Shown: positions 5,354 through 29,210, numbered from the stretch's first letter. The stretch is 32,000 nucleotides of DNA from Thermodesulfobacterium commune DSM 2178 (GCF_000734015.1 NZ_CP008796.1:1050001-1082000), one strand, 5' to 3'. Translations and numbers: made by a program. Notes: a model not told the origin generated them from the sequence alone.

Positions 5354-6063
5354 AGGTCTTAGGGGTGTTAGGTTCGCCTCACAAAAACGGTGGGTCTGCT
5401 CAGCTTTTACTTGCTGCCTTAAAAGGGGCAGAAAGAGAAGGAGCTAAAACTGAGCTGGTCAGTGTTTACGACGGAGAAATAAAACCTTGTATAGGATGTA
5501 TCCATGACGAAGAGCCTAACTGTAAGTTTCCTTGCATATTTGAAGACTATGGAAAAATCATTTTAGAAAAAATCTATGAAGCAGACGGTATTATCTTTTC
5601 TACCCCGATTTATTGGTTTGCACCTTCTGGGCAGTTAAAAAACCTGATAGACCGCATGACTTGTCTTGAAAACATGGTCTCCTACGGAGAACCAAGTTAT
5701 CTCGAAGGAAAAGTAGTAGGTGCTATAGCTGTAGGGGCAGACGAAGGGGGAGCCTGGACAGGAGGTTATATCATTACTACCATGACCTCAATGGGGGCTA
5801 TCATTCCCCCCTGGGGTATTGCTTACTCACATAAGGCAGACAGAGCTATTTATGATGATAAAGCCTTGATGGATGCGATAAACATCGGTATCTTAACCAC
5901 AAGAACTATAGCAAGACTTAAAGGGATCCCTACAGATTTAACCTTTGTTTATAACAAAGATCTTCTTGAAAACATCAGAAAGGAAGTTATCGTAAGTTTA
6001 AATTTTATAAACACAGGAAAGGAAGGCTATGGAAAAAGACAAGCTAAAAGAAGCAGTATTTAA
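5350..6063 (+). CDS. Flavodoxin-like FMN reductase / iron-sulfur flavoprotein family
   Basis: The ATG at 5350 overlaps the upstream stop (ATGA) and follows GGAGGGAGG. MKVLGVLGSPHKNGG.. is the FMN-reductase fold, and there is a Cys cluster CIGC..C..PC. The ORF-track TTG at 5329 is less likely. Confidence 0.75.
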   Translation: MKVLGVLGSPHKNGGSAQLLLAALKGAEREGAKTELVSVYDGEIKPCIGCIHDEEPNCKFPCIFEDYGKIILEKIYEADGIIFSTPIYWFAPSGQLKNLIDRMTCLENMVSYGEPSYLEGKVVGAIAVGADEGGAWTGGYIITTMTSMGAIIPPWGIAYSHKADRAIYDDKALMDAINIGILTTRTIARLKGIPTDLTFVYNKDLLENIRKEVIVSLNFINTGKEGYGKRQAKRSSI

Positions 6064-6556
6064 GGCTATTTTTGATAGAAGAAGTATAAGAAAGTATTTA
6101 GACCAAAAACCTGACAAGAAATTAATTTATAAGCTGTTAGAAGCAGGTATATGGGCTCCTTCTGGGTTAAATAACCAACCTTGGAGGTTTGTAATAGTCT
6201 GGTCTGAAGAAATTAAACAAAAGCTGGCAGCCTTAACCAGATATCATGAAATCATCAAAAAGGCTCCGGTTTTAATTGGCGTGTTTTTAGATAAAGACAG
6301 GATGTACCACCAGATAAAAGACCATCAATCTGCAGGGGCTTGTATCCAAAACATCCTGCTTGCAGCTCATGCCTCTGGTCTTGGGGCCTGTTGGTTAGGT
6401 GAAATCTTAAAAAACGAAGAAAAAGTAAAAGAGGTCCTCTCCTTACCTAAGGAGAAATACGAACTTGCAGCTTTTATCGCTTTAGGATATCCAGATGATC
6501 AAAGTAAAAGGACCTCCAGACAACCTTTAGAAAACTTTATCATCAAAGAGATTTAA
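6029..6556 (+). CDS. Nitroreductase family protein (copy 1)
   Basis: 175 aa with RRSIRKY.., PSGLNNQPWRF, and a conserved C-terminal GYP. SD AGGAAAGGAAGG upstream. It overlaps the flavoprotein gene by 35 nt. Confidence 0.85.
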   Translation: MEKDKLKEAVFKAIFDRRSIRKYLDQKPDKKLIYKLLEAGIWAPSGLNNQPWRFVIVWSEEIKQKLAALTRYHEIIKKAPVLIGVFLDKDRMYHQIKDHQSAGACIQNILLAAHASGLGACWLGEILKNEEKVKEVLSLPKEKYELAAFIALGYPDDQSKRTSRQPLENFIIKEI

Positions 6557-6577
6557 AAGACTAAGCAGGGGGTTCTC

Positions 6578-7339
6578 ATGACCAAAAAATTCGTTCCCTT
6601 GATGTTAAGCTTGAGTTTTATTTTAGTAGGATGTAGTAAAGGATTAGGAGGTTCAGGCGGTTGTCCTACAGTAAAAGAATTCCAAAAAAAATTAGATAAC
6701 CTTCAGCCTGGAATTCAAATAGAAAAAATCGAAAAATCACCGATTCCAGGGTTATGTAAAGTAGTGATTAAAATATCGGAGTTTAATAAAGCTCTGTTTT
6801 ATACTGACGCAAAAGGAAATTACATCATAAGTGGGAACATCATTGACATAGCACAAAAAAAAGATATCATCAGAGAAGAGATGGAAAAATTAAACAAAAA
6901 AGTGCTTGATAAAAACACATTAGCAGAGGTAGAAAAGCTTGTTGACCTTACCTATGGCAACTCTCCTAACGTAGTATACTTTATTACTGACCCTGACTGT
7001 CCTGTCTGTAAACGTGCTGAACCTGTGTTAGAAAACCTGGCTAAAGAGGGGAAGATAACGGTCAAAACCATACTTTTACCCTTAGAGTCTTTACATCCCG
7101 AGGCCAAAAATAAATCTATATCTCTTATCTGTGATAAAAAAGGTTTTCAAGACCTTATCCAAGGATATAAAGGGGCTAACCTTTGTGCTTCAGGAAAAGA
7201 AAAAATAGAAAAAAACATAGATTTTATGTTTAACAAAATAGGAGTAACCGGGACCCCTGCTTTTATCTTCCCAGACGGAGAAGTTGTAATAGGTTGGGTA
7301 GGTCCGGAGTTTATTCTCAACAAGTTTAACTTGCGATAA
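6578..7339 (+). CDS. DsbC/DsbG-like thioredoxin-fold lipoprotein (copy 1)
   Basis: 253 aa with a lipoprotein signal ending in the lipobox LVGC and a CPVC redox motif in a thioredoxin-like C-terminal domain. Confidence 0.75.
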   Translation: MTKKFVPLMLSLSFILVGCSKGLGGSGGCPTVKEFQKKLDNLQPGIQIEKIEKSPIPGLCKVVIKISEFNKALFYTDAKGNYIISGNIIDIAQKKDIIREEMEKLNKKVLDKNTLAEVEKLVDLTYGNSPNVVYFITDPDCPVCKRAEPVLENLAKEGKITVKTILLPLESLHPEAKNKSISLICDKKGFQDLIQGYKGANLCASGKEKIEKNIDFMFNKIGVTGTPAFIFPDGEVVIGWVGPEFILNKFNLR

Positions 7340-7343
7340 AAAT

Positions 7344-7901
7344 ATGTTAACCGTTCAAGAAAAACTTTTTTGCTTAAAACTGGCAAGAAAAACCTTAGAA
7401 GACTATTTTAAAGGAACTTATGAACTAATTAACCCTCCAGACAAATACCCCTCTCTTAAACAAAAGAGAGGGGCTTTTGTGACCTTGCTTAAGGAAGGCA
7501 ATCTGAGAGGGTGTATCGGGATTATCGAACCTTTATACCCTCTCTATCAAGTAATCCAAGAAATGGCTATCTCTGCAGCCTTTAAAGACCCAAGGTTTCC
7601 ACCCCTTACAAAGGAGGAGCTTTCTCTTACAGAAATAGAAATTTCAGTTCTATCTCCTCTTAAAAAAGGAACTATAGAAGAGATAGAGGTAGGGAAACAC
7701 GGGGTATATTTAATCAAAGGCTTTTATCGAGGCGTACTCCTTCCTCAAGTACCTGTAGAGTATGGTTGGGACAAAAAGACCTTTTTAGAACACCTCTGTC
7801 TTAAAGCTGGCCTTCACCCTAACTGTTATAAGGAAAAAGACGTAGAAATCTATCTTTTTACGGCAGAGGTTTTTAAAGAAAGCGAATTTTTTAAAAACTA
7901 A
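7344..7901 (+). CDS. AMMECR1 domain protein (copy 1)
   Basis: 185 aa with the typical AMMECR1 signature (RGAFVTL..G.LRGCIG, DPRFPPL, LLPQV). Confidence 0.85.
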   Translation: MLTVQEKLFCLKLARKTLEDYFKGTYELINPPDKYPSLKQKRGAFVTLLKEGNLRGCIGIIEPLYPLYQVIQEMAISAAFKDPRFPPLTKEELSLTEIEISVLSPLKKGTIEEIEVGKHGVYLIKGFYRGVLLPQVPVEYGWDKKTFLEHLCLKAGLHPNCYKEKDVEIYLFTAEVFKESEFFKN

Positions 7902-8115
7902 TCAAGCCTTTTTGTCTATTCTAAATAGGCTTATCAACTGGTCCCTAATTTGCCGATAGAGAATAAAATCAAAAATCTTTCTTTAATCTTTAAACTTAAA
8001 AATCATAATCCTTAGTTACTTTCTATAGTTCTTCCCCAACTCTCATATAAAATCTATTCCATTCTCTACCTGTAACTACTCCTCTCAATCTTTTTCCCCT
8101 GATTCTAAACATATT

Positions 8116-8181
8116 TTTATAACAAAAGTCTTCTTGAAACCATCAGAAAAGAGGTTATCGCAAGTTTAAATTTTATAAACA
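8116..8181 (+). pseudogene. 66-nt fragment of a second, diverged copy of the flavoprotein gene 3' end
   Basis: It aligns to 5948-6013 with 6 mismatches and would encode ..YNKSLLETIRKEVIASLNFIN. Homology stops exactly where the MDH fragment begins. Confidence 0.8.
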
Positions 8182-8735
8182 TGGTGTATGTGGCTTACAA
8201 GGTGACGGGTTTCTCAAGGGAAAGGGTTATAGGAATGGCTGGGGTCCTTGATTCTGCTCGTTATCGGTATTTCATTGCAGAAGCCTTAGGGGTAAGCCCT
8301 GCTGATGTTTCTGCGCTTGTGCTTGGCATCCATGGCGACCATATGGTGCCCCTTGTGCGGCTTGCTAATGTCGCTGGGGTGCCCATAACTCAACTTCTTT
8401 CTCAAGAAAAGGTCGAAGAAATAGTAAAAAGGACGAAGTATGGAGGGGGCGAGATCGTAAGCCTTCTTAAGACTGGTAGCGCCTTTATCACCCCAGGGTT
8501 AGCCACGATTGAGATGGCTGAATCTATACTTAAAGATGCAAAAAGGGTGTTGACTTGTTCAGTGCTTTTGAAAGGTGAATACGGCATTTCTGGCGTCTTT
8601 CTTGGCGTCCCTGTTATCCTTGGAAGGCAAGGAGTAGAAAGGATCCTTGAGTTTGACCTTCTACCAGAAGAGAGTGAAGCTTTGTTAGCCGGAGCCAAAG
8701 TCTGCGAAGCCTTAATCTCTCAGCTTGAACTGTAG
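8181..8735 (+). pseudogene. mdh: 5'-truncated LDH-like malate dehydrogenase (C-terminal ~184 codons only)
   Basis: VYVAYKVTGFSRERVIGMAGVLDSARYRYFIAEALGVS..GIHGDHMVPL.. matches the catalytic/C-terminal domain of MDH. The NAD-binding N-terminal ~125 aa are absent. The ATG sits at the junction and has no SD. A sample line (8281-8340) is about 57% GC. Confidence 0.8.
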
Positions 8736-8871
8736 AAGTTTTAGGCAGATTTAGTAGATTGGGGCTAATTTAGATGAAATGTTGCTCAATGCGCTTGGTA
8801 GATAAAATGAGCATCTAAGCATAGAATAGCAGAAGTTAAAATTTAAGATAAATATATTGTCTAATATATTA

Positions 8872-8896
8872 TTAAGGCCTTAAATTAAGGCCTTAA
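8872..8896. promoter_or_regulatory. Operator-like pair of 12-bp perfect palindromes TTAAGGCCTTAA (unit 1)
   Basis: TTAAGGCCTTAA at 8872-8883 and 8885-8896, 13-bp period, ending 22 nt upstream of the duplicated ATG at 8919. The sequence is certain. The function is inferred. Confidence 0.35.
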
Positions 8897-8918
8897 ATGA
8901 AATATCAAATTTTAATGT

Positions 8919-9008
8919 ATGAACATTGAAAATTCTAACAACAAACTGAAAGAAAAATTAAATAGCTTTCTTGATTATCATAAAACTCTTTTTATAATAT
9001 ATTATTAA
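8919..9008 (+). other. 29-codon ORF created by the tandem duplication (first 25 codons identical to the helicase gene)
   Basis: MNIENSNNKLKEKLNSFLDYHKTLF then IIYY-stop. The stop (9006-9008) lies inside the first palindrome of unit 2. Confidence 0.3.
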
Positions 9009-9029
9009 GGCCTTAAATTAAGGCCTTAA
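9005..9029. promoter_or_regulatory. Operator-like pair of 12-bp perfect palindromes TTAAGGCCTTAA (unit 2)
   Basis: Palindromes at 9005-9016 and 9018-9029, ending 22 nt upstream of the helicase ATG (9052). No SD lies between them and the ATG. Confidence 0.35.
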
Positions 9030-9051
9030 ATGAAATATCAAATTTTAATGT

Positions 9052-12000
9052 ATGAACATTGAAAATTCTAACAACAAACTGAAAGAAAAATTAAATAGCT
9101 TTCTTGATTATCATAAAACTCTTTTTAATCTTAAACGTAAGATTATAAAAAAACTTGAAGATTATGATGAAGTTATTTGGCTATATGAAATTCCTAATGA
9201 GAAGGAATGTTTTTGTATTTTAAATGCCAGTGATGATGTTGATGAAACAATTTTAGAGGTTTATTTACCTGATGAACCAGAAAAACCTATTATTCCACAT
9301 GAAATAAATAAATATGTTGTATTTGACAAAAATGAAGAACCAAAACTGAATGAAACTCTATTGCTGCAGCTACTGCAACAAAACGAAATAACCAACGAGG
9401 ATTTACTTCAAATTAAAGAAATCTTTGAAAAGTATGAAAAAAAGTATATTGAATGGCTTATAGAACACGAACGTTGGAGGAAAATTTATAAAGTTTATGA
9501 AAAACTTTATAAGATGTACTTTGAACTAAAACGAAATGAAGCAGCTTATGAACTTGTACTTGGCTGTGGTTTATTATTATGGCGTCAACCAAATTGTCAA
9601 ATCATTCAACGTCATATATTAACCGCTAGATGTGTTATAGAGTTTGAGAAGGACAAAAAAGAAATCAAGGTTCTATTTGATGAAAATAATCCAAAAGTAA
9701 ACTTAGAAGATGAAATGATTGATTTAGAGTATCGACCTTCTGGGATTATAGAAAGTAAAAAAGCACTACTCGAAGATTCTTCAGTATTTGATTTATTTTT
9801 AACGACAGAAAACAATTCTAATAATATTATTTCCTTTTTAAAAGCATTTGTAAATACATTACATCCACAAGGTAAATACGAACATATTAATCAACCGGAT
9901 CTAAAAAACATAAATGATATACCAAGAATCGAGTTTGCTCCAGCAATAATTTTGAGAAAACGGACTGAACCATACCTAAAGTGGTTAAATGACCTCTCAA
10001 AATTGGAAATTAAAGAGATTTCGCCTTTAATTTTAGAAATAGCCGAAATAAAAAAGGAAGATGAAGAATTTTATGATACAAATAAAAGCACCTTAATAGA
10101 TTATAGACTATATTTTCCCAAACCTTACAATGAGGAACAGAAAAAAATTATTGAAAGATTAAACTTTTCGAACTTAGTAGTAATACAAGGACCACCAGGA
10201 ACCGGTAAATCGCATACAATTGCTAACTTAATAGCTCATTTGTTAGCCGAAGGCAAAAGAGTGTTAGTAACTGCAAAAACAAGTAGGGCGTTGGCAGTTT
10301 TAAAAAATCTAATTCCTGAAAAACTAAGAGAGTTTTGTATTTTTCTTTTCGGTGATTCCAGTTTTGAAGAAAAAGAACATCTCGAGCATAGTGTGAAATC
10401 GTTATTATACAATTTGCGAAATTTGGATTCTGAAAGACTTGAAAATAACATTAAAGAACTAGAAGAAGAATTAGAAAAAATCAAATGTAAAAAAAGAGAA
10501 TTAACGCATCAAATTCTAATGTTAGTAAACTTAGAAAAAGAAGATTATAAGGAAATAGGAATCTATAAAGGCAGTAGAGCTGACTTAGCCCTACAATTTG
10601 AAGAAGATAAAGAAAAATTTGTTTGGTTTGAAGATAATATCCATTGTGATAAAAATTGGCCAGATGAATTAAATAACGTTAATTGGGATAAACTGATAAA
10701 TAGTTTGAACTATTTTAAATCATATAGTCAAAAAGAATTTATAGGTAAACAGTTAGAAAACTTAATAAAGGATCTAAAACAAATTTTTGTTTTGATACCT
10801 CTTACTCAGATAGAAAACTTATTAGAAAAAGAGACAAAAATTGTTGATCAACTAAACCGCTTTGAAAAAATCACTATTAAATTTATAAACAAAAACACTT
10901 CTGATTATTTCGATCTTGATTTTTTAAATGAGTCTATAACTTTTTTCAAAAATTTTAAAGAAAAACTAAATGAAATCGGAGTAGAGTTACCTTGGGTAAA
11001 AGATTTGTGCAGATCTATTTTAGAAAATGAAGAATTAATGAAAAGAAAAATAGATAAAATAAAATCAATAAAAGAAGAGGTTCTTAATTGGCAGTGTGTA
11101 TTGCCAAAACAGAAAAATGAACCTATAGATGTTGAAGAGATCATTAATGACATAGAAATCTTATTGCATTATTTACAAAGTGGCGGAAAACTAGGTTTTT
11201 GGATTTTTAGACCTAGTATAGTAAAAGAAAGAGAATATTTAATAAAAAATTGTTATATTGACGGAAAAAAATGTAGCACTATTGATGACTTAAGAAGATT
11301 GAATCTTTATTTAAAAACAATGAATGAATTGAAAAGACTTTATGGCGATTGGGAAAAATATTTTGAAGACACATCAACTACAACTCTGAAAGAAAAATAT
11401 AAAATTCTAAAAGAAAAGATCTTAGATCCAGCAGAGCAAATTATGAAAGATAAAGATCTACTTTTAAAGTGTAGACTTTATCAAAAGAAACTAGGTATTA
11501 CAGACCCCACCGTTTTCTTTGATCCTGACAAGATTGTTCAGCTTATTGATGAATTAAATTATTACAAATTACAAACTGAATTAGTGGACATTCAGCAAAA
11601 GATAAACCTATTAATAGAAGAATTAAAAAATATAAATACTAGTTGCTATGATTTGCCACGTCTACTTAAATACTTAGAAGAAAGAAGAGTTGACGAACTA
11701 TTAAATGCTATTTATAAAATAAAAGAAGAAAAAGAAAAAATATTACTAATTGAAAAAAATTTAGAAATTTTAAAAAAACATCTTCCAAATTTAATTGATA
11801 ATATTTTTTTAAATCCAAATTATGAATATTGGGCTCCTAAAATTAAAGTATTAAACAGGGCTTGGGATTTTGCGAGATTAAAATCTTTTCTTCATGAAAT
11901 TACATCTGAAAATGATTTTGAACAATTAAATAAGCAGCTTTCTCAACTTGAAAATGAGGAAAGAAAAATTATTGCAGACATAATTGCATTAAAAACATGG

Positions 12001-13482
12001 TATTTCTTATCAAAAAAAATTGATAAAGAAACTAAAAAGCATTTAGTTGCATGGGAACAGGCTATTAAAAAAATCGGTAGAGGTAAAGGAAAATATGTTA
12101 ATAAATATATGAAAGATGCACAATCACATTTAGAAGAAGTAATATACTCCTTTCCAATTTGGATAATGCCTATTTATAAAATTTATTACACATTTGAAAT
12201 CAAAAATTTCTTGTGGTTTGATGTTCTGATTATTGACGAAGCTTCACAATGCAGTATATTAGAAGGATTTCCCTTATTTCAATTAGCGGCTAAGGTTGTA
12301 ATAGTTGGAGATGATAAACAGATTTCACCAGAAGCTATCGGTATCGAAAAATCCAAGATTTTTCAATTACAAAGAGAATATTTGTATGACTTTGACTTTA
12401 AAGATACCTTTGATTTGGAAAGTAGTATTTTTGATTTGGGGAAAAGAATATCTCCTGATGATATTATCACTTTAAAAGAACATTTTAGATGTATGCCAGA
12501 AATTATAGAATTTTGTAATCGCTATTTTTATAATGGCTTTTTAGTTCCTTTAAAAGTTTTTTCACTGGATAGACTCAATCCTTTAGAAAAAATATATGTT
12601 TCTAATGCATATTGTAAAGGTAGCGGAAGCAATGTAATTAATCCAATAGAAGCGGAAGCCATTGTGGAAAAAATAATTGAAATATGTTCAGATGAAAGAT
12701 ATAAAGGTAAAACAATAGGAGTAATAAGCCTTTTAGGAGATGAGCAGGCAAAATACATAGAAACCTTAATAATGCAAAAACTTGACCACAAAGAAATTTT
12801 GGAAAGACAACTTTTATGTGGTAATCCTTACTCATTTCAAGGGGATGAAAGGGACATAATCTTCCTATCCTTGGTTATTGCTCCGATTAATGAAGATGGA
12901 ACTAAAAGACACATAGGAGTTTTAAACAAAGTTCAAGATGAAAGGAGATTTAATGTCGCTGTAAGTAGAGCAAAGGAACAAATATGGTTATTTCATTCGG
13001 TAAAAATTGAAGATTTATCCCGTGAAGATTTAAGGAGAAAGTTATTAGAGTATTTTTATACTCCACACAAATTTGAAATTGAAGGAATAGATTTAAATGA
13101 ATTAAGAAAAATCGCTATCTCAGCTAATAGATATTTTGAAAAACCTCCCTCTCCTTTTGAAAGTTGGTTTGAGGTTGATGTTGCACTGGAAATTCTTACA
13201 TTAGGGTTTGAAGTTAAACCTCAGTTTAAAGTTGGACCATATCGCATTGATTTAGTCACTTTTGATAAATTGAATACTCTTAATAGACTTGCAATAGAAT
13301 GTGATGGAGATAAATATCATGGAATAGAACATATAGAACGAGATATTAACAGACAAAAAATCTTGGAAAGATGCGGTTGGAAATTTTTCAGAATCAGAGC
13401 TTCTGAATTTTACTTTGATAAACACAAAGTATTAGAAAAACTAAAATCTACATTAGAAAGTTTGAATATTTATCCCAGATAA
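9052..13482 (+). CDS. Large SF1 (Upf1/DNA2-like, AAA_11/AAA_12-type) helicase fused to a C-terminal DUF559/Vsr-like PD-(D/E)xK nuclease fold; candidate defence protein
   Basis: Uninterrupted 1476-aa ORF. Helicase motifs: Walker A GPPGTGKS (aa 380-387), motif II DEASQ (1062-1066), GDDKQISP (1086-1093), HFRCMPEII (1144-), QGDERD (1263-), NVAVSRAK (1301-). C-terminal nuclease fold: YRIDLV..IECDGDKYH..RD..R..L..GWKFFRI. A sample line (9061-9120) is about 22% GC. Confidence 0.9.
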   Translation: MNIENSNNKLKEKLNSFLDYHKTLFNLKRKIIKKLEDYDEVIWLYEIPNEKECFCILNASDDVDETILEVYLPDEPEKPIIPHEINKYVVFDKNEEPKLNETLLLQLLQQNEITNEDLLQIKEIFEKYEKKYIEWLIEHERWRKIYKVYEKLYKMYFELKRNEAAYELVLGCGLLLWRQPNCQIIQRHILTARCVIEFEKDKKEIKVLFDENNPKVNLEDEMIDLEYRPSGIIESKKALLEDSSVFDLFLTTENNSNNIISFLKAFVNTLHPQGKYEHINQPDLKNINDIPRIEFAPAIILRKRTEPYLKWLNDLSKLEIKEISPLILEIAEIKKEDEEFYDTNKSTLIDYRLYFPKPYNEEQKKIIERLNFSNLVVIQGPPGTGKSHTIANLIAHLLAEGKRVLVTAKTSRALAVLKNLIPEKLREFCIFLFGDSSFEEKEHLEHSVKSLLYNLRNLDSERLENNIKELEEELEKIKCKKRELTHQILMLVNLEKEDYKEIGIYKGSRADLALQFEEDKEKFVWFEDNIHCDKNWPDELNNVNWDKLINSLNYFKSYSQKEFIGKQLENLIKDLKQIFVLIPLTQIENLLEKETKIVDQLNRFEKITIKFINKNTSDYFDLDFLNESITFFKNFKEKLNEIGVELPWVKDLCRSILENEELMKRKIDKIKSIKEEVLNWQCVLPKQKNEPIDVEEIINDIEILLHYLQSGGKLGFWIFRPSIVKEREYLIKNCYIDGKKCSTIDDLRRLNLYLKTMNELKRLYGDWEKYFEDTSTTTLKEKYKILKEKILDPAEQIMKDKDLLLKCRLYQKKLGITDPTVFFDPDKIVQLIDELNYYKLQTELVDIQQKINLLIEELKNINTSCYDLPRLLKYLEERRVDELLNAIYKIKEEKEKILLIEKNLEILKKHLPNLIDNIFLNPNYEYWAPKIKVLNRAWDFARLKSFLHEITSENDFEQLNKQLSQLENEERKIIADIIALKTWYFLSKKIDKETKKHLVAWEQAIKKIGRGKGKYVNKYMKDAQSHLEEVIYSFPIWIMPIYKIYYTFEIKNFLWFDVLIIDEASQCSILEGFPLFQLAAKVVIVGDDKQISPEAIGIEKSKIFQLQREYLYDFDFKDTFDLESSIFDLGKRISPDDIITLKEHFRCMPEIIEFCNRYFYNGFLVPLKVFSLDRLNPLEKIYVSNAYCKGSGSNVINPIEAEAIVEKIIEICSDERYKGKTIGVISLLGDEQAKYIETLIMQKLDHKEILERQLLCGNPYSFQGDERDIIFLSLVIAPINEDGTKRHIGVLNKVQDERRFNVAVSRAKEQIWLFHSVKIEDLSREDLRRKLLEYFYTPHKFEIEGIDLNELRKIAISANRYFEKPPSPFESWFEVDVALEILTLGFEVKPQFKVGPYRIDLVTFDKLNTLNRLAIECDGDKYHGIEHIERDINRQKILERCGWKFFRIRASEFYFDKHKVLEKLKSTLESLNIYPR

Positions 13483-13682
13483 GTTTTTTTTGTAGATTAA
13501 ATTTTTTATCAAATCTTCCGATTGTCAGCAAAATGAAAGGTAGTGTCTCATTAACTATAAAGACTTGAGAGGGCAGAGAGGCCATGGTAGCTTCCTCAAA
13601 AACGACACCAAATCACTAAAAAAGAAGGGAAGGTACCATGAAAAGAACAGACTAATTATTTCAAAAATAGACAAAGAAGGCT

Positions 13683-14210
13683 ATGGAAAAAGACAGGTTA
13701 AAAGAAGCGGTGTTTAAGGCTATTTTTGATAGAAGGAGCATAAGAAGGTATTTAGAACAAAAGCCTAACAAGGAGTTAATCTATCGATTGTTAGAAGCTG
13801 GTATATGGGCTCCTTCTGGGTTAAACAACCAACCTTGGAGGTTTGTAATAGTCTGGTCTGAAGAAATTAAACAAAAGCTGGCAGCCTTAACCAGATATCA
13901 TGAAATCATCAAAAAGGCTCCGGTTTTAATTGGCGTGTTTTTAGATAAAGACAGGATGTACCACCAGATAAAAGACCATCAATCTGCAGGGGCTTGTATC
14001 CAAAACATCCTGCTTGCAGCTCATGCCTCTGGTCTTGGGGCCTGTTGGTTAGGTGAAATCTTAAAAAACGAAGAAAAAGTAAAAGAGGTCCTCTCCTTAC
14101 CTAAGGAGAAATACGAACTTGCAGCTTTTATCGCTTTAGGATATCCAGATGATCAAAGTAAAAGGACCTCCAGACAACCTTTAGAAAACTTTATCATCAA
14201 AGAGATTTAA
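13683..14210 (+). CDS. Nitroreductase family protein (copy 2)
   Basis: 175 aa. It differs from copy 1 at 6 of the first 35 residues (K5R, K22R, D25E, D29N, K31E, K35R) and is identical afterwards. Confidence 0.85.
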   Translation: MEKDRLKEAVFKAIFDRRSIRRYLEQKPNKELIYRLLEAGIWAPSGLNNQPWRFVIVWSEEIKQKLAALTRYHEIIKKAPVLIGVFLDKDRMYHQIKDHQSAGACIQNILLAAHASGLGACWLGEILKNEEKVKEVLSLPKEKYELAAFIALGYPDDQSKRTSRQPLENFIIKEI

Positions 14211-14231
14211 AAGACTAAGCAGGGGGTTCTC

Positions 14232-14993
14232 ATGACCAAAAAATTCGTTCCCTTGATGTTAAGCTTGAGTTTTATTTTAGTAGGATGTAGTAAAGGATTA
14301 GGAGGTTCAGGCGGTTGTCCTACAGTAAAAGAATTCCAAAAAAAATTAGATAACCTTCAGCCTGGAATTCAAATAGAAAAAATCGAAAAATCACCGATTC
14401 CAGGGTTATGTAAAGTAGTGATTAAAATATCGGAGTTTAATAAAGCTCTGTTTTATACTGACGCAAAAGGAAATTACATCATAAGTGGGAACATCATTGA
14501 CATAGCACAAAAAAAAGATATCATCAGAGAAGAGATGGAAAAATTAAACAAAAAAGTGCTTGATAAAAACACATTAGCAGAGGTAGAAAAGCTTGTTGAC
14601 CTTACCTATGGCAACTCTCCTAACGTAGTATACTTTATTACTGACCCTGACTGTCCTGTCTGTAAACGTGCTGAACCTGTGTTAGAAAACCTGGCTAAAG
14701 AGGGGAAGATAACGGTCAAAACCATACTTTTACCCTTAGAGTCTTTACATCCCGAGGCCAAAAATAAATCTATATCTCTTATCTGTGATAAAAAAGGTTT
14801 TCAAGACCTTATCCAAGGATATAAAGGGGCTAACCTTTGTGCTTCAGGAAAAGAAAAAATAGAAAAAAACATAGATTTTATGTTTAACAAAATAGGAGTA
14901 ACCGGGACCCCTGCTTTTATCTTCCCAGACGGAGAAGTTGTAATAGGTTGGGTAGGTCCGGAGTTTATTCTCAACAAGTTTAACTTGCGATAA
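14232..14993 (+). CDS. DsbC/DsbG-like thioredoxin-fold lipoprotein (copy 2)
   Basis: The 253-aa translation is identical to copy 1. Confidence 0.75.
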   Translation: MTKKFVPLMLSLSFILVGCSKGLGGSGGCPTVKEFQKKLDNLQPGIQIEKIEKSPIPGLCKVVIKISEFNKALFYTDAKGNYIISGNIIDIAQKKDIIREEMEKLNKKVLDKNTLAEVEKLVDLTYGNSPNVVYFITDPDCPVCKRAEPVLENLAKEGKITVKTILLPLESLHPEAKNKSISLICDKKGFQDLIQGYKGANLCASGKEKIEKNIDFMFNKIGVTGTPAFIFPDGEVVIGWVGPEFILNKFNLR

Positions 14994-14997
14994 AAAT

Positions 14998-15555
14998 ATG
15001 TTAACCGTTCAAGAAAAACTTTTTTGCTTAAAACTGGCAAGAAAAACCTTAGAAGACTATTTTAAAGGAACTTATGAACTAATTAACCCTCCAGACAAAT
15101 ACCCCTCTCTTAAACAAAAGAGAGGGGCTTTTGTGACCTTGCTTAAGGAAGGCAATCTGAGAGGGTGTATCGGGATTATCGAACCTTTATACCCTCTCTA
15201 TCAAGTAATCCAAGAAATGGCTATCTCTGCAGCCTTTAAAGACCCAAGGTTTCCACCCCTTACAAAGGAGGAGCTTTCTCTTACAGAAATAGAAATTTCA
15301 GTTCTATCTCCTCTTAAAAAAGGAACTATAGAAGAGATAGAGGTAGGGAAACACGGGGTATATTTAATCAAAGGCTTTTATCGAGGCGTACTCCTTCCTC
15401 AAGTACCTGTAGAGTATGGTTGGGACAAAAAGACCTTTTTAGAACACCTCTGTCTTAAAGCTGGCCTTCACCCTAACTGTTATAAGGAAAAAGACGTAGA
15501 AATCTATCTTTTTACGGCAGAGGTTTTTAAAGAAAGCGAATTTTTTAAAAACTAA
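14998..15555 (+). CDS. AMMECR1 domain protein (copy 2)
   Basis: The 185-aa translation is identical to copy 1. Confidence 0.85.
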   Translation: MLTVQEKLFCLKLARKTLEDYFKGTYELINPPDKYPSLKQKRGAFVTLLKEGNLRGCIGIIEPLYPLYQVIQEMAISAAFKDPRFPPLTKEELSLTEIEISVLSPLKKGTIEEIEVGKHGVYLIKGFYRGVLLPQVPVEYGWDKKTFLEHLCLKAGLHPNCYKEKDVEIYLFTAEVFKESEFFKN

Positions 15556-15597
15556 TCAAGCCTTTCTGTCTCCTCTAAAGAGGCTTATCAACTGGCT

Positions 15598-15917: not shown

Positions 15918-17257
15918 GTGGGAGTAGAATATAAATTGTGTCTTTTAATAAAATATTTTAGAGGCATAATAAAAATTTTTAATATTTTTTAAATTAATGA
16001 TAACATAAAACCTAAAAGACTAAACTAACCAGGAGGTCTGTAAAATGGAAAACTTAGACTTAGATTTAGAAAAAGTTTTAAGTGAAATCTCAAAAATTGA
16101 ATCAAAAGAGGGTATCAAAATGGCTGCTGCACTCCTCTTAAACGCTCTCATGAAAAAAGAAAGAGAAATATTCCTTAGAGATAGTATTGATAATAAAGCT
16201 AATGGTTACTATGAAAGACAACTTGCCTGTTTCTTAGGTAACCTTGGTATCTCTGTCCCAAGAGATAGAAAATCTGAATTCAGACCTGCTATTCTTCCTC
16301 CTGAATGGCAAAAAGCTGATGAATCCTTCCAGGACTTTATCCTTAACCTCGTTCTCCAAAGCTACTCCCCCAATAAAATCAAAGCCCTCTTGCAATCTAT
16401 GAAACTCCCCTACTCCCCAGAACAAATAGAAGAAATTAAAGAAGAATTGTATAACCAAGCCAAAGAATTAAAAACCAAAGAATTGCCAGAAAATTTGTTT
16501 GCTATGTTTATAGACGCTTATCATACTCAGATAAAAGATACCGAAGCCAACAGAATCAGAAAAGCAGTTATTTATAATATCATCGGGATAGATATGGAGG
16601 GAAGAAAAAATTTACTTTCTTATTACATTTATTTTGGTTCAGAGACGAAGGAGGACTGGCTCCAGATACTTAATGATTTGATAAAGAGGGGAGTTAAGAG
16701 GGTTATGGTAATAGTGAGTGATGATTTTCCTGGCCTTACTCAAGCCATAAAAGCCCTCTTTCCTGAGACAGATCATCAGCTTTGTTTTGTACACATGCAA
16801 AGGAACATCAACAGGAACATGTCTAAGCAGGATGCTAAAAAATTTTATGAGGAGTTAAGCATTATAAAGAGGATAGAGGAGTATGAGAGGGCCTTAAATA
16901 GATTTGAGGAATTATGTAAGAGTTATGAGAAGAAGTATCCAGCTTATATAAAGGGACTTTTGAAAAAGAAGGAGCATTATTTTGTTTATAAGAAATATCC
17001 TGAGGGGGTGAGGAGGTATATATACACGACGAATGTGGTTGAGAATATAAATAGCAGGATAGAGCTGATAAGGGTAAATACAGGGGGATATTTTCAATCA
17101 ATCAAGACAGCAGAGGTTGCGATATACATAACAGTAAGTCGGATTCAGAAAACGAGATGGCAAAAACCACTTCCTTTAATTAAGTCTGCTTTATACGAAT
17201 TGAGGCAAATGTTTGTAAAGAGATTTTATAAGGAGACACAATTCTCTTGACAAGTGT
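15918..17257 (+). mobile_element. IS256-family insertion sequence (ends approximate, +/-20 bp)
   Basis: About 1.34 kb around a Mutator-type transposase gene. Inverted AATTGTGTC at 15934-15942 and 17235-17243 with imperfect inward extension, at the same distance from the end as in IS256. The outermost ~15 nt do not match each other. Confidence 0.75.
16045..17250 (+). CDS. IS256/Mutator-family DDE transposase
   Basis: 401 aa with family-typical blocks (FIDAYHTQIKD, VSDDFPGL..AI..FP....Q.CFVHMQRN, TTNVVENINSRI). SD AGGAGG upstream. Confidence 0.9.
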   Translation: MENLDLDLEKVLSEISKIESKEGIKMAAALLLNALMKKEREIFLRDSIDNKANGYYERQLACFLGNLGISVPRDRKSEFRPAILPPEWQKADESFQDFILNLVLQSYSPNKIKALLQSMKLPYSPEQIEEIKEELYNQAKELKTKELPENLFAMFIDAYHTQIKDTEANRIRKAVIYNIIGIDMEGRKNLLSYYIYFGSETKEDWLQILNDLIKRGVKRVMVIVSDDFPGLTQAIKALFPETDHQLCFVHMQRNINRNMSKQDAKKFYEELSIIKRIEEYERALNRFEELCKSYEKKYPAYIKGLLKKKEHYFVYKKYPEGVRRYIYTTNVVENINSRIELIRVNTGGYFQSIKTAEVAIYITVSRIQKTRWQKPLPLIKSALYELRQMFVKRFYKETQFS

Positions 17258-17992
17258 CCAAAACATCATAATTGGGGCTGCTTCAGGCATATCTTACAAG
17301 TAAATTCTTTTTTCTTTTTTCATCTATTTCCAGTAGCTTTTATCTGTGCTGGGGTAATCCACAGGTTTTACAAAAAAGATTTAACCTCATCAGTAAAAAC
17401 CCCCGAAGAAGCCTTAAAATATAGATACAATAAGCCTTCGGTCATTAAATCTTCTTTGGTAGTCCTAATCACAGTAATTCTTTTCTTTTTAAACGTACCT
17501 ATGGAAATTGTTTCTATAGGTGTAGGGTCATTTCTGTTGATTACCAGAAGGGTTAAGCCTGAAAAGGTGTATAACCTGATAGACTTTAGACTTTTAATCC
17601 TTTTTATAGGGCTTTTTATCGTCATAAAAGGGGTTGAAAAATCTGTAGTTTTTTATAGTTTGGTAGAACATTTTCAGATGTTAGTAACGGCCCCTCTATC
17701 TTTGGTATTTTCTTCTCTCTTAGTTTCTAACGTTGTAAGCAACGTTCCTGCAGTTTTGATCTTTAAACCTCTTATAGTTAATTACTTTAATGACGAAAAA
17801 GCCTGGTTTTTCTTAGCGATGTCCTCGACTTTTGCAGGGAATTTAACCATCCTTGGGTCTATCGCTAACATCATCGTCATCGAAGGAGCCTCTCCAAAAG
17901 TAAAGATTGGCTTTTTTGAATACCTAAAAATCGGTCTTCCGGTAACCCTACTCTCCGTTTTAGTTGGACTTGTGATTTTAAGTTTATTTTAA
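17258..17992 (+). pseudogene. Same permease, C-terminal fragment (one more frameshift near 17295-17310)
   Basis: QNIIIGAASGISY (17259-17297) is the permease (G)NPQN-type motif region and runs into a stop at 17301. The next frame reads FFFFHLFPVAFICAGV.. through the ORF-track 17456-17992 product (..SNVVSNVPAVL..AGNLTILGSIANIIVIE..). Confidence 0.7.
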
Positions 17993-27358: not shown

Positions 27359-27676
27359 GCAAAGCTTAGGGGTGTTCAATAAAATTTTTCTTTTTAGCAA
27401 TATGTATCTTTTTTTTGTGATAAAGTTTTTTTTTATTCTTCTTTTAGGTTGGTCACTTCCTTAATTACTTCTTTCTTCTTTTTTTCTACCAATGATTTTT
27501 AAACTTTTGAAATAAAGTTTTTTGGGCAAATCTTTACCCTTGACCTTTTAATATTTTTATTAATAATTTTAAAATATATATGGCTAAAATTTGGCACCTC
27601 AAATTTACTTATTTTCTATCCGAGGTCTTTTATCTCAACCTTTATAAATTCCTTAAACCTTTTATCTGTTTAAAAA

Positions 27677-27702
27677 AACATAAAAATTGCAGAAGGATGT
27701 TA
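27677..27702. repeat. Left copy of a 26-bp imperfect direct repeat bracketing the IS110 relic
   Basis: AACATAAAAATTGCAGAAGGATGTTA, versus AACATAAAAATTGCAGGAGGGTGTTA at 28439-28464 (2 mismatches). Confidence 0.85.
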
Positions 27703-28211
27703 AGGAAGGAGAGGGTAAAGATGTTGAAATGTTTTTCAGCTTCGGGGAAGAGGACGGAGAGGGCATATTTGATTTGTGTTTTGGCAAAAGATCATTCTTT
27801 TTTGAGTTTTTGGATGAGACGAGAGAGGTTTCTCAGGTGATGATCTGGTGGGAGAGGATTAAGGAATTGGGGGTTAGAGTGAGCAAAAAGTGCAAGGATT
27901 TTAGCGTCTTTGGTATCAGACTTAGAGGGGTTGTTTGCGGAGAGGAACTGGAAGAACCTGTGAAGGATTTTTGGGTTGATAACAAAAGCTTGAATATCAT
28001 TAGCAAGGAGAAAGTGATAAAGTGGGAGGAAGAATCTTCCAGTAGATTCCATGACTACGATAGGTTTAGGGTATTGTTTAAGGATGGAGAGAAGCTGAGA
28101 GAAACCTTCTTGAGACATAGGGAGGTGTTTGGAGAGGATAAAGGATTGTTGATGGAGGACAGCGATATTAAAAGTGTCTTTAGAGACATCAATACCGACG
28201 AAGTAATTCAT
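27703..28211 (-). pseudogene. IS110-family DEDD recombinase/transposase, truncated with an in-frame TGA
   Basis: MNYFVGIDVSKDTF.., MESTGRF, VINP, KSDTKDA. A TGA at 27791-27789 is followed in the same frame by SFAKTQIKYALSVLFPEAEKHFNIFTLSFLNIL.., the FPE.. block typical of the family. Confidence 0.8.
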
Positions 28212-28438
28212 GGGAGCACCTCCTTGTGTGGTGTTGTTGGTATAGTAAAAGTCCCTCGCTCCATCCTCCCATGTGGCAGAGGCTTAGGAAGCCTAACCAA
28301 CTTATTGGGAGTTGAGGGACAGGGGGACAGACTCCTCTCGAGGCTTTTAAGCCTAAGAGTTATGGAGTCCTTGTCCCTCTTTATTTTGTTGTTGTCCATA
28401 TTATTACTATACAACGCAACATATGTTAAGCAAAAACT
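28212..28438 (-). ncRNA. Structured 5' non-coding leader of the IS110 relic; possible bridge-RNA remnant
   Basis: Nested helices visible by eye. GAGGGACA (28314-28321) pairs with TGTCCCTC (28372-28379), GACTCC (28330-28335) with GGAGTC (28364-28369), and CTCT (28335-28338) with AGAG (28356-28359). Two hairpins have AGGCTT/AAGCCT arms (28280-28294 and 28341-28354); the second allows only 5 bp around a 4-nt loop. GC is higher than in the flanks. Confidence 0.35.
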
Positions 28439-28464
28439 AACATAAAAATTGCAGGAGGGTGTTA
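28439..28464. repeat. Right copy of the 26-bp imperfect direct repeat
   Basis: It contains the SD (GGAGGG) of the SPFH gene and ends on the A of its ATG. Confidence 0.85.
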
Positions 28465-29210
28465 TGAGTTTTACGTTAATTTTCATTGTTATTTTGATCT
28501 TACTGTTTTTACAAACCTCAGTAAAGGTAATTAATGAATATGAAAGGGCGGTAGTTCTTAGGTTAGGTAAATTTTTAGCGGTTAAAGGCCCAGGGCTGAT
28601 TATACTCCTTCCAATCATAGATAAAATGGTAAAAATAGACCTAAGAACAGTTACTTTAGACGTTCCTCCTCAAGAGGTTATTACTAAGGATAATGTTTCT
28701 ATTAGGGTAAGTGCCGTAGTATATTATAGGGTATTAGACCCAGAAAAATCTTTTCTTCAAGTAGAAGATTATCATTATGCTACCAGTCAATTAGCCCAAA
28801 CCACCTTAAGAAGCATCTGTGGTCAAGCAGAGCTTGATGAAGTGTTAGCCGAAAGAGAAAAACTTAATCTAAAAATCCAAGAAATCCTTGATGCAGAAAC
28901 AGAACCTTGGGGTGTCAAGGTTTCGAAGGTAGAAATTAAAGAAATAGACCTTCCAGAAGAAATGAAAAGGGCTATGGCTAAACAAGCTGAAGCTGAGAGA
29001 GAAAGAAGGGCCAAAATAATCAGCGCTGATGGTGAGTACCAAGCCTCTAAGACCTTACTTGAAGCTGCCCAAATTATGGCACAAAATCCAATAACCCTTC
29101 AACTAAGGTATTTACAAACTCTTACAGAGATTGCAAGTGAAAAAAATTCCACAATACTCTTTCCTTTACCTATTGAACTGTTAAAAGCATTAACAAATAA
29201 CCCTAAATAA
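28464..29210 (+). CDS. SPFH/band-7 (stomatin/slipin-like) membrane protein
   Basis: N-terminal TM helix, then [17 protein letters not shown].. and an AEAERE-rich coiled region. ATG at 28464 with SD GGAGGG. The ORF-track TTG at 28449 is less likely. Confidence 0.9.

Follow-up and report, generated by a model that had tools for sequence, protein, structure and literature searches.

We analyzed a 32,000-nucleotide stretch of Thermodesulfobacterium commune DSM 2178 (NZ_CP008796.1:1050001-1082000; here, the window) that carries a gene for a large fusion of a helicase and a nuclease. The reading frame and every motif position quoted in an earlier note, made from the sequence alone, were borne out, and the product is identical in sequence to WP_038062878.1 of T. 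commune, which is annotated solely as an "AAA domain-containing protein." The gene has a guanine-plus-cytosine (GC) content of 27.9%, against approximately 37% in both flanks. It lies in a segment, approximately positions 8180 to 13674, that is 99.9 to 100% identical to copies elsewhere, including one in a genome of 44% GC, with nothing shared beyond that range. A foreign origin of the gene, as the earlier note had read from its composition, is strongly supported. Besides the gene, the segment contains only the truncated half of a malate dehydrogenase gene, leaving the helicase-nuclease as its sole intact cargo, as had been proposed.

Modules of the helicase-nuclease

The motor is of the Upf1/DNA2 type within helicase superfamily 1 (SF1), with its motifs intact as first noted. 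Pfam models place AAA_11 at residues 359 to 499 and over a second stretch before motif II, and AAA_12 at residues 1123 to 1314; AAA_30 and AAA_19 also match the first part of helicase domain 1A. Read from the translation, GPPGTGKS occupies residues 380 to 387 (including K386; nucleotides 10189 to 10212), DEAS(Q) residues 1062 to 1066 (nucleotides 12235 to 12249), QGDER residues 1263 to 1267, and NVAVSRAK residues 1301 to 1308. Across 120 aligned full-length homologues, the motif residues are invariant or almost so. The full motif set of the Upf1/DNA2 clade (I, Ia, II, III, IV, V, and VI) is present, which places the motor among the Upf1-like SF1B helicases, and the TIGR00376 model of IGHMBP2 scores 111 bits. 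The closest motors by sequence, PDB sequence matches included, are Upf1/Nam7, Sen1, IGHMBP2, and DNA2. The eukaryotic members of this set share the motor family but have neither a Vsr-like nuclease, nor the N-terminal domain, nor the helical insert of about 590 residues described below.

Walker A and motif II are separated by 676 residues, most of which belong to this insert. AlphaFold2 confidently models residues 436 to 1034 as nearly all helix and elongated, with a predicted local distance difference test score (pLDDT) of 88.8 and a predicted template-modeling score (pTM) of 0.57. A conserved basic, glycine-rich loop, GRGKGK (residues 1009 to 1014), stands at the insert's end. Foldseek returned only generic coiled coils for the insert, such as MukB, Rad50, and dynein stalks (E ≥ 3e-3, template-modeling [TM] score ≤ 0.16), and the PADLOC profile of the Mokosh protein MkoC aligns with its C-terminal half (match span, residues 768 to 1337).

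The C terminus is a nuclease of the restriction-endonuclease fold, based on a Pfam match to MTES_1575 at residues 1373 to 1468 (E = 8e-29; 100 bits against a cutoff of 38.2) and weaker matches to DUF559 (E = 8e-7) and DUF2726. The paper that introduced MTES_1575 (PMC3710099) described it as a new domain of the Vsr family, with a restriction-endonuclease fold, fused to SF1 helicases. The PD-(D/E)xK pattern that the earlier note had placed here holds in its acidic positions: D1400 and E1416 are kept in all 120 homologues and D1418 in 116, but K1421, the proposed lysine, is variable (N, E, H, or Y). H1423, D1431, and R1434 are also kept throughout, and Q1435 in 118 homologues. The protein ends 8 residues past this domain.

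The N-terminal domain serves as the marker of the family. No Pfam model matches residues 1 to 360 even at E ≤ 10, in agreement with the earlier statement that this region has no nameable motif. Its AlphaFold2 model is confident (pLDDT 86.9, pTM 0.77) and combines a helix at the N terminus with a small sheet, a helix of 47 residues, and long beta-hairpins. Among the invariant positions are Y149, E167, G173, W177, E219, P229, P297, R302, and R304. Neither Foldseek (best E, 0.27) nor profile searches matched it to a structure in the PDB, and a search of BFVD gave one weak match, to a 440-residue "AAA domain protein" (E = 2.5e-3, TM score 0.27).

The earlier note had seen a likeness to the core of DUF4011-type domains in the stretch comprising AYELVLGCGLLLW (residues 165 to 177), RHILTA (187 to 192), and IEFEKD (196 to 201). 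Membership in DUF4011 (PF13195) was not confirmed, as the Pfam model matched neither the query (E ≤ 10) nor any of the 120 homologues nor any of five plasmid-borne relatives. For profile-profile comparison, DUF4011 was represented by a profile of 120 homologues of the N terminus of the defense protein Hhe. Against the N-domain profile, this profile gave an E value of 0.07 (probability below 1%), and with the plasmid relatives added 0.02; all comparisons with the query profile stayed below 3% probability. Against the plasmid relatives alone, the E value was 4.6e-4 with a probability of 33% over 34 columns. The aligned segment was each time that same stretch of the earlier note (YELVLGxGLLxW...RH against LYLALGFLEW...APL). 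We take this as a lead toward a very distant relationship, at best a weak, motif-level link.

Measured against an 83%-identical orthologue (contig L007), the ratio of nonsynonymous to synonymous substitution rates (dN/dS) is 0.21 for the whole gene and 0.24, 0.22, 0.12, and 0.17 for the N-domain, the insert, the C-terminal part of the helicase, and the nuclease, respectively. These values, 0.12 to 0.24 by module, indicate purifying selection on every module.

Table 1. Coordinates of the gene, its modules, and surrounding features in the window
Feature	Position (residues)	Strand	Remarks
Helicase-nuclease gene, whole	9052..13482	+	ATG start, the first listed start after a stop; 1476 residues
N-terminal domain	9052..10086 (1-345)	+	Family marker; no Pfam model; AlphaFold2, profile search
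Helicase domain 1A, first part	10114..10371 (355-440)	+	Q-like motif, Walker A GPPGTGKS, motif Ia; Pfam
Insert in domain 1A, ~590 residues	10372..12141 (441-1030)	+	Nearly all helix, elongated; AlphaFold2
Helicase domain 1A, second part, and domain 2A	12142..13041 (1031-1330)	+	Motif II DEASQ, GDDKQ, HFRC, QGDER, NVAVSRAK
Vsr-like restriction-endonuclease-fold nuclease	13168..13455 (1373-1468)	+	MTES_1575/DUF559; D1400, E1416-x-D1418, H1423, D1431, R1434, Q1435
Malate/lactate dehydrogenase, C-terminal half	8181..8735	+	184 residues; Ldh_1_C only; marks left end of segment
Exact 133-bp tandem duplication	8862..9127 (units 8862-8994 and 8995-9127)	+	Upstream region and first 25 codons
Direct repeat, 1923 bp, left copy	6019..7941	+	Nitroreductase, DsbC-like, and AMMECR1 genes
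Direct repeat, 1923 bp, right copy	13673..15595	+	Starts where identity to other genomes ends (13674)
IS256-family (Mutator) transposase	16045..17250	+	At least 4 identical copies in the genome, by protein accession
Truncated CitMHS transporter gene	17456-17992		C-terminal 178 residues only; next to the IS256 transposase

Relation to named defense systems and to a wider family

The best matches of the query in defense libraries are to PDC-S37 (237.6 bits) and Hhe (138.6 bits) in PADLOC, and to ProA (241.9 bits; cutoff, 1500) and Hhe (153.6 bits; cutoff, 2000) in NCBIfam. The PDC-S37, Hhe, and ProA matches cover only the Walker A stretch and residues ~1054 to 1472. As a control we used a real Hhe, WP_021314612.1 (1911 residues, from a Klebsiella plasmid), which scored 4299 bits on the PADLOC Hhe model and 2735 on the NCBIfam model over its full length. 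It also scored 1267 bits on PDC-S37 and 1131 on ProA, five times above the family of the query, four other members of which score like the query itself (190 to 230 bits; 195 to 219 for relatives on ProA). Based on these partial, low scores, the protein is not a member of Hhe, ProA (NF058533), or PDC-S37, for which the best stretch covers positions 934 to 1341 of a 1550-position profile. In relatives, the alignment to ProA and PDC-S37 is collinear from Walker A through the nuclease and leaves the N-domain uncovered. A literature search returned nothing on either system.

The earlier note had likened the protein to Hhe, and this stands for the architecture, though not for membership. Hhe (NF042953, PDLC02194) is likewise a Upf1-type SF1 helicase followed by a Vsr-like MTES_1575/DUF559 nuclease on one polypeptide, with hundreds of residues between Walker A and DEAxQ (a split-1A layout), and the query shares its AAA_11 and AAA_12 domains with intact motifs and the position of the nuclease after the helicase. 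By BLASTP and profile comparison, the alignment is limited to residues 364 to 445, matching Hhe 432 to 512, and 1033 to 1471; identity is 41% around Walker A and 28% over residues 1035 to 1471, nuclease included. Hhe is longer (1911 residues versus 1476), and its DUF4011 domain and DUF3320 tail have no counterpart by hidden Markov model in the query, whose own N-domain and insert show no significant similarity to it. Judged by these comparisons, the protein is Hhe-like in plan yet belongs to a different, large, unnamed family.

Two other systems were compared. For Mokosh, alignment extends over the helicase core and part of the insert (MkoC, 130 bits; MkoA, 116 bits), and nothing corresponds to the N-domain. 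The Mokosh effector is a PLD-family nuclease; the query has no PLD domain by Pfam and a Vsr-like effector instead, so the similarity is confined to the helicase, and membership was rejected. The resemblance to Nhi suggested by the earlier note holds only as a concept, a nuclease and an SF1 helicase in one defense protein. In Nhi the domain order is reversed, with the nuclease at the N terminus, and there was no Nhi model among the ten PADLOC families matched at E ≤ 1, in a copy of PADLOC whose content of Nhi models was not checked.

The family itself is widespread. Full-length homologues (33 to 39% identity, 1450 to 1670 residues) occur in Nitrospirota, Desulfobacterota, Planctomycetota, Verrucomicrobiota, Chlorobiota, Acidobacteriota, Hydrogenedentota, Chloroflexota, and other phyla. 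A profile of the N-domain alone matches 2250 representatives of 50%-identity clusters at E ≤ 1e-3, of which 622 remain at E ≤ 1e-30. In the listed proteins, the domain stands at or near the N terminus, and most of the long ones have 1450 to 2000 residues. A scan of GTDB gave 212 relatives, confirmed by tblastn, in many phyla, and the GC content of their genes has a median 4.4 points lower than that of the flanks. A sister group is carried on plasmids of Acinetobacter, Streptomyces, Variovorax, Fusobacteria, and Tsukamurella and has the same C-terminal half. Its Acinetobacter member, WP_000653919.1 (1576 residues), is 36% identical to the query over helicase and nuclease, the last 540 residues. 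The N-domain of these proteins is homologous to that of the query (hhalign probability 99.9%, E = 2e-33), but the first half of the insert cannot be aligned. The sister family is likewise without a name or characterization: plasmid relatives and family are on record only as "AAA domain-containing protein" or "very-short-patch-repair endonuclease."

What follows the nuclease varies from member to member. Among 197 family proteins with a complete C terminus, 44, including the T. commune protein, have essentially no tail. The most common tail (79 of 197) has about 140 residues, an acidic linker followed by a conserved domain of about 75 residues that has no Pfam match and a consensus that can be read as winged-helix-like. 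A GreA/GreB C-terminal domain (PF01272) ends 30 proteins, about 15%; in another 25 (25 to 26) the tail is related to that of a DUF3320-bearing member, and two have Mrr_N. One protein (P0125; contig L105, 4001-9964) ends in sigma-70 regions 2, 3, and 4, and another (P0158) has sigma-70 region 1.1 at its N terminus together with DUF3320. The sigma fusion, an open reading frame of 1987 residues, is identical on seven contigs from independent assemblies and is therefore no assembly artifact.

Gre C-terminal domains and sigma regions 2 to 4 bind RNA polymerase, so some of the members are probably recruited to transcription complexes. The Mrr_N, DUF3320-like, and ~140-residue tails are probable DNA-binding modules, based on Pfam names and sequence pattern.

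Genomic contexts and candidate functions

Across 34 loci from different species, the commonest neighbor family occurs in only 3, so the gene stands alone and belongs to no conserved housekeeping operon. For the strict family, 12 contexts were annotated with Pfam, and 4 of these have defense neighbors. The homologue of Thermodesulfovibrio aggregans (contig L010, 1-14862) has a type III-A Csm module with HicB/YafQ toxin-antitoxin genes on one side and two cas1-cas2 pairs on the other, which puts it inside a CRISPR locus. Another relative has Ssp-like genes and AAA_15/DUF4276 nearby, and a further one GmrSD and IS3. Defense neighbors also accompany 4 of the 5 plasmid relatives: BREX, Wadjet (twice), and a type I restriction-modification system, with the Acinetobacter gene directly downstream of BREX pglZ-brxL. 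The gene of the sigma-fused protein comes after genes for a PLD-SNF2 helicase and an Eco57I-type methyltransferase.

We favor, with somewhat better than even confidence, the reading that the T. commune protein is a self-contained, mobile helicase-nuclease that acts as a single-protein defense against invading DNA, phage or plasmid, as has been proposed for proteins of the Hhe type. Several lines of evidence lead to it. In the defense libraries, the query comes closest to anti-phage helicase-nucleases (PDC-S37, Hhe, MkoA/C, and ProA), one of which, Hhe, is validated as a single-gene system. The motor and nuclease are intact, with selection acting on all modules. No partner gene is apparent, the phyletic spread is wide, the GC content is low relative to the flanks, and transfer between species was recent. 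Some relatives have defense neighbors (CRISPR, Ssp, GmrSD, BREX, Wadjet, and restriction-modification, as well as ApeA-HEPN and PD-(D/E)xK genes beside a copy of the T. commune gene in another strain), and the sigma-fused member follows restriction-type genes.

Other results weigh against this reading. Most of the Pfam-annotated contexts (7 of 12) have no defense gene within 8 kb, and several relatives sit in ordinary surroundings, for example next to tig/clpP/dnaA, scpAB, or 2-oxoacid dehydrogenase genes. Among 135 immediate neighbors in the 34 loci, no PADLOC family matches more than four proteins; the most-matched families are mad8, AriA, mad3, HEC-01/02, AbiLi, NsnB, and Old (2 to 4 proteins each), and the remainder are miscellaneous by Pfam. 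No model in PADLOC or NCBIfam covers the protein over its full length, and a literature search found no paper and no experiment on this unnamed family. Nor are such proteins always accessory: every Pseudomonas aeruginosa isolate has a related DUF4011 helicase as a core gene. Finally, the Gre and sigma modules could equally serve a role in transcription or genome maintenance. Homologues located mainly in conserved housekeeping contexts would, by the earlier note, have refuted the defense role that it proposed; those of the 34 loci are not so placed, but recognizable defense genes occur in just about a third of the sampled contexts. Enrichment in defense islands is suggested, not demonstrated, and from sequence a defense role is plausible and unproven.

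The ordinary contexts and the polymerase-binding modules, together with the P. aeruginosa core gene and a helicase core closest to Upf1, Nam7, Sen1, IGHMBP2, and DNA2, would also fit a nonimmune bacterial enzyme of the Sen1 or Dna2 kind that rids the cell's own DNA of R-loops, stalled RNA polymerases, or aberrant replication intermediates. We regard this as unlikely for the T. commune protein, which has no polymerase-binding module. A maintenance role also sits poorly with the lack of synteny or a conserved operon, with the foreign GC content and recent transfer between species, and with plasmid copies beside BREX and Wadjet and a sigma-fused member amid restriction-type genes.

Mobility raises a second alternative, a weapon or maintenance factor of mobile elements that acts in element competition, plasmid exclusion, or addiction and benefits the carrier element and not the host. 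Relatives do occur on conjugative and mobilizable plasmids, some beside integrases, resolvases, and transposases, and the T. commune gene is flanked by direct repeats with an IS256 copy nearby. However, the T. commune segment carries only a gene fragment besides the gene and has no replication, transfer, or integration genes, and phage records contain almost no relatives, with four weak matches to the core only. We consider this alternative quite improbable; it overlaps with defense, and sequence alone does not tell the two apart.

If the protein is a defense enzyme, its motor would load on single strands of nucleic acid that become exposed when foreign DNA is replicated or transcribed, and would translocate 5' to 3', the established polarity of Upf1-like SF1B helicases. 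Translocation may deliver the nuclease to foreign DNA or license it to cut there. The N-domain and the long helical arm could act as a sensor, autoinhibitor, or oligomerization element that controls activation. In relatives, the terminal modules would target RNA polymerase (Gre C-terminal domain, sigma-70 regions 2 to 4 or 1.1) or DNA (Mrr_N, the DUF3320-like tail, the ~140-residue domain), and the T. commune protein would be the minimal form without a terminal module. This picture agrees with the little that is known of Hhe, a validated single-gene anti-phage system: its candidate T7 triggers are a block of DNA-metabolism genes (bioRxiv 10.1101/2024.10.10.617714), which points to recognition of a process and not of a protein.

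More tentatively, and with considerable doubt, the N-domain family may be a distinct, widespread class of single-protein immune helicase-nucleases that find their targets via interchangeable terminal adaptors, with the T. commune protein as an adaptor-less core that senses by its N-terminal fold and helical arm. If so, adaptors that dock on RNA polymerase would couple recognition of the invader to transcription.

Hhe-type fusions have been validated as defense genes. The present family keeps the Hhe-type motor and nuclease and swaps all else, including an N-terminal fold that has no Pfam model or solved relative, and its variable adaptors are natural domain swaps for testing the noncatalytic parts of Hhe-like proteins. 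The family is invisible to the defense models of PADLOC v2 and NCBIfam and is thus missed in defense censuses of environmental and thermophilic bacteria.

The imported segment and its surroundings

The history of the segment can be followed from its copies. Matching copies lie on two contigs, L001 (9262-14623) and L004 (94-5455), and an identical protein is found on 11 to 15 contigs, which come from several independent assemblies. On a contig of 253 kb in GCA_041641195.1, with flanks of 44% GC, the gene stands between an intact 307-residue malate dehydrogenase gene and a TPR gene. Logan contigs have the truncated dehydrogenase fragment of the window in front of the gene and, again, a TPR gene behind it. 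The segment is thus shared by genomes of 37% and 44% GC in three different flank arrangements. The dehydrogenase fragment is the 3' half of an intact 307-residue gene in L001; its GC content (47.7%) is in line with the 44%-GC genome, not with T. commune, and points to the 44%-GC lineage as donor.

In the simplest reading, the low-GC gene settled beside mdh in the 44%-GC lineage, a piece broken within mdh then moved into Thermodesulfobacterium, and the right side of the segment was later replaced in the strain of the window. The locus would then be a record of a very recent transfer between species, with breakpoints that are still readable. On L004, which is from another strain, positions 5534 to 15263, 3' of the identical gene, carry TPR, SSO2105_N, ApeA-HEPN, PDDEXK_1, and DUF2357/PDDEXK_7 genes, which looks like a small defense island that is missing from the T. 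commune window.

Another alternative is a functionless passenger, recently acquired and not yet decayed: the gene came in together with a broken malate dehydrogenase gene, and the region has a duplicated segment, an insertion sequence element, and a truncated transporter gene. The other copies are too nearly identical to reveal selection within the T. commune lineage. We nevertheless consider a mere passenger very improbable, as the reading frame is full length with every motif intact, the identical protein recurs in independent assemblies, and dN/dS against the 83%-identical orthologue is low.

The segment is bracketed by the two copies of the 1923-bp direct repeat, which are 98.75% identical. 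Their central 1739 bp are identical, and all 24 mismatches fall within the first 154 or last 30 bp, a distribution like the edges of recombination or gene conversion. The repeats could allow excision of a 7.65-kb circle. Separately, a 74-nucleotide stretch to the left of the first repeat copy, at the 3' end of the FMN-reductase gene (5940-6013), recurs with 88% identity at 8108-8181, immediately before the dehydrogenase fragment, and the Logan contig L004 shares this junction. As possible marks of an integration site, tRNAs and Rfam families were looked for, and none occurs in the window.

The 133-bp unit at the start of the gene is single in the other gene copies (L001 and L004), and its duplication is found in this strain alone. 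The upstream unit starts a decoy open reading frame of 29 codons. The junction of the two units creates a near-consensus site, TTGATT-16-TATAAT, at positions 8971 to 8998, 54 nucleotides 5' of the start codon; promoter and terminator scans as a whole were at chance level, with 31 sites against 26.4 ± 6.5 expected.

To the right of the segment, the CitMHS transporter gene was probably broken by insertion of the neighboring IS256 element. Farther along the window, at positions 27672 to 29210, are two adjacent open reading frames of 252 and 253 residues, with TTG starts, each preceded by a similar 31-nucleotide sequence (87% identical); they look like tandem paralogues.

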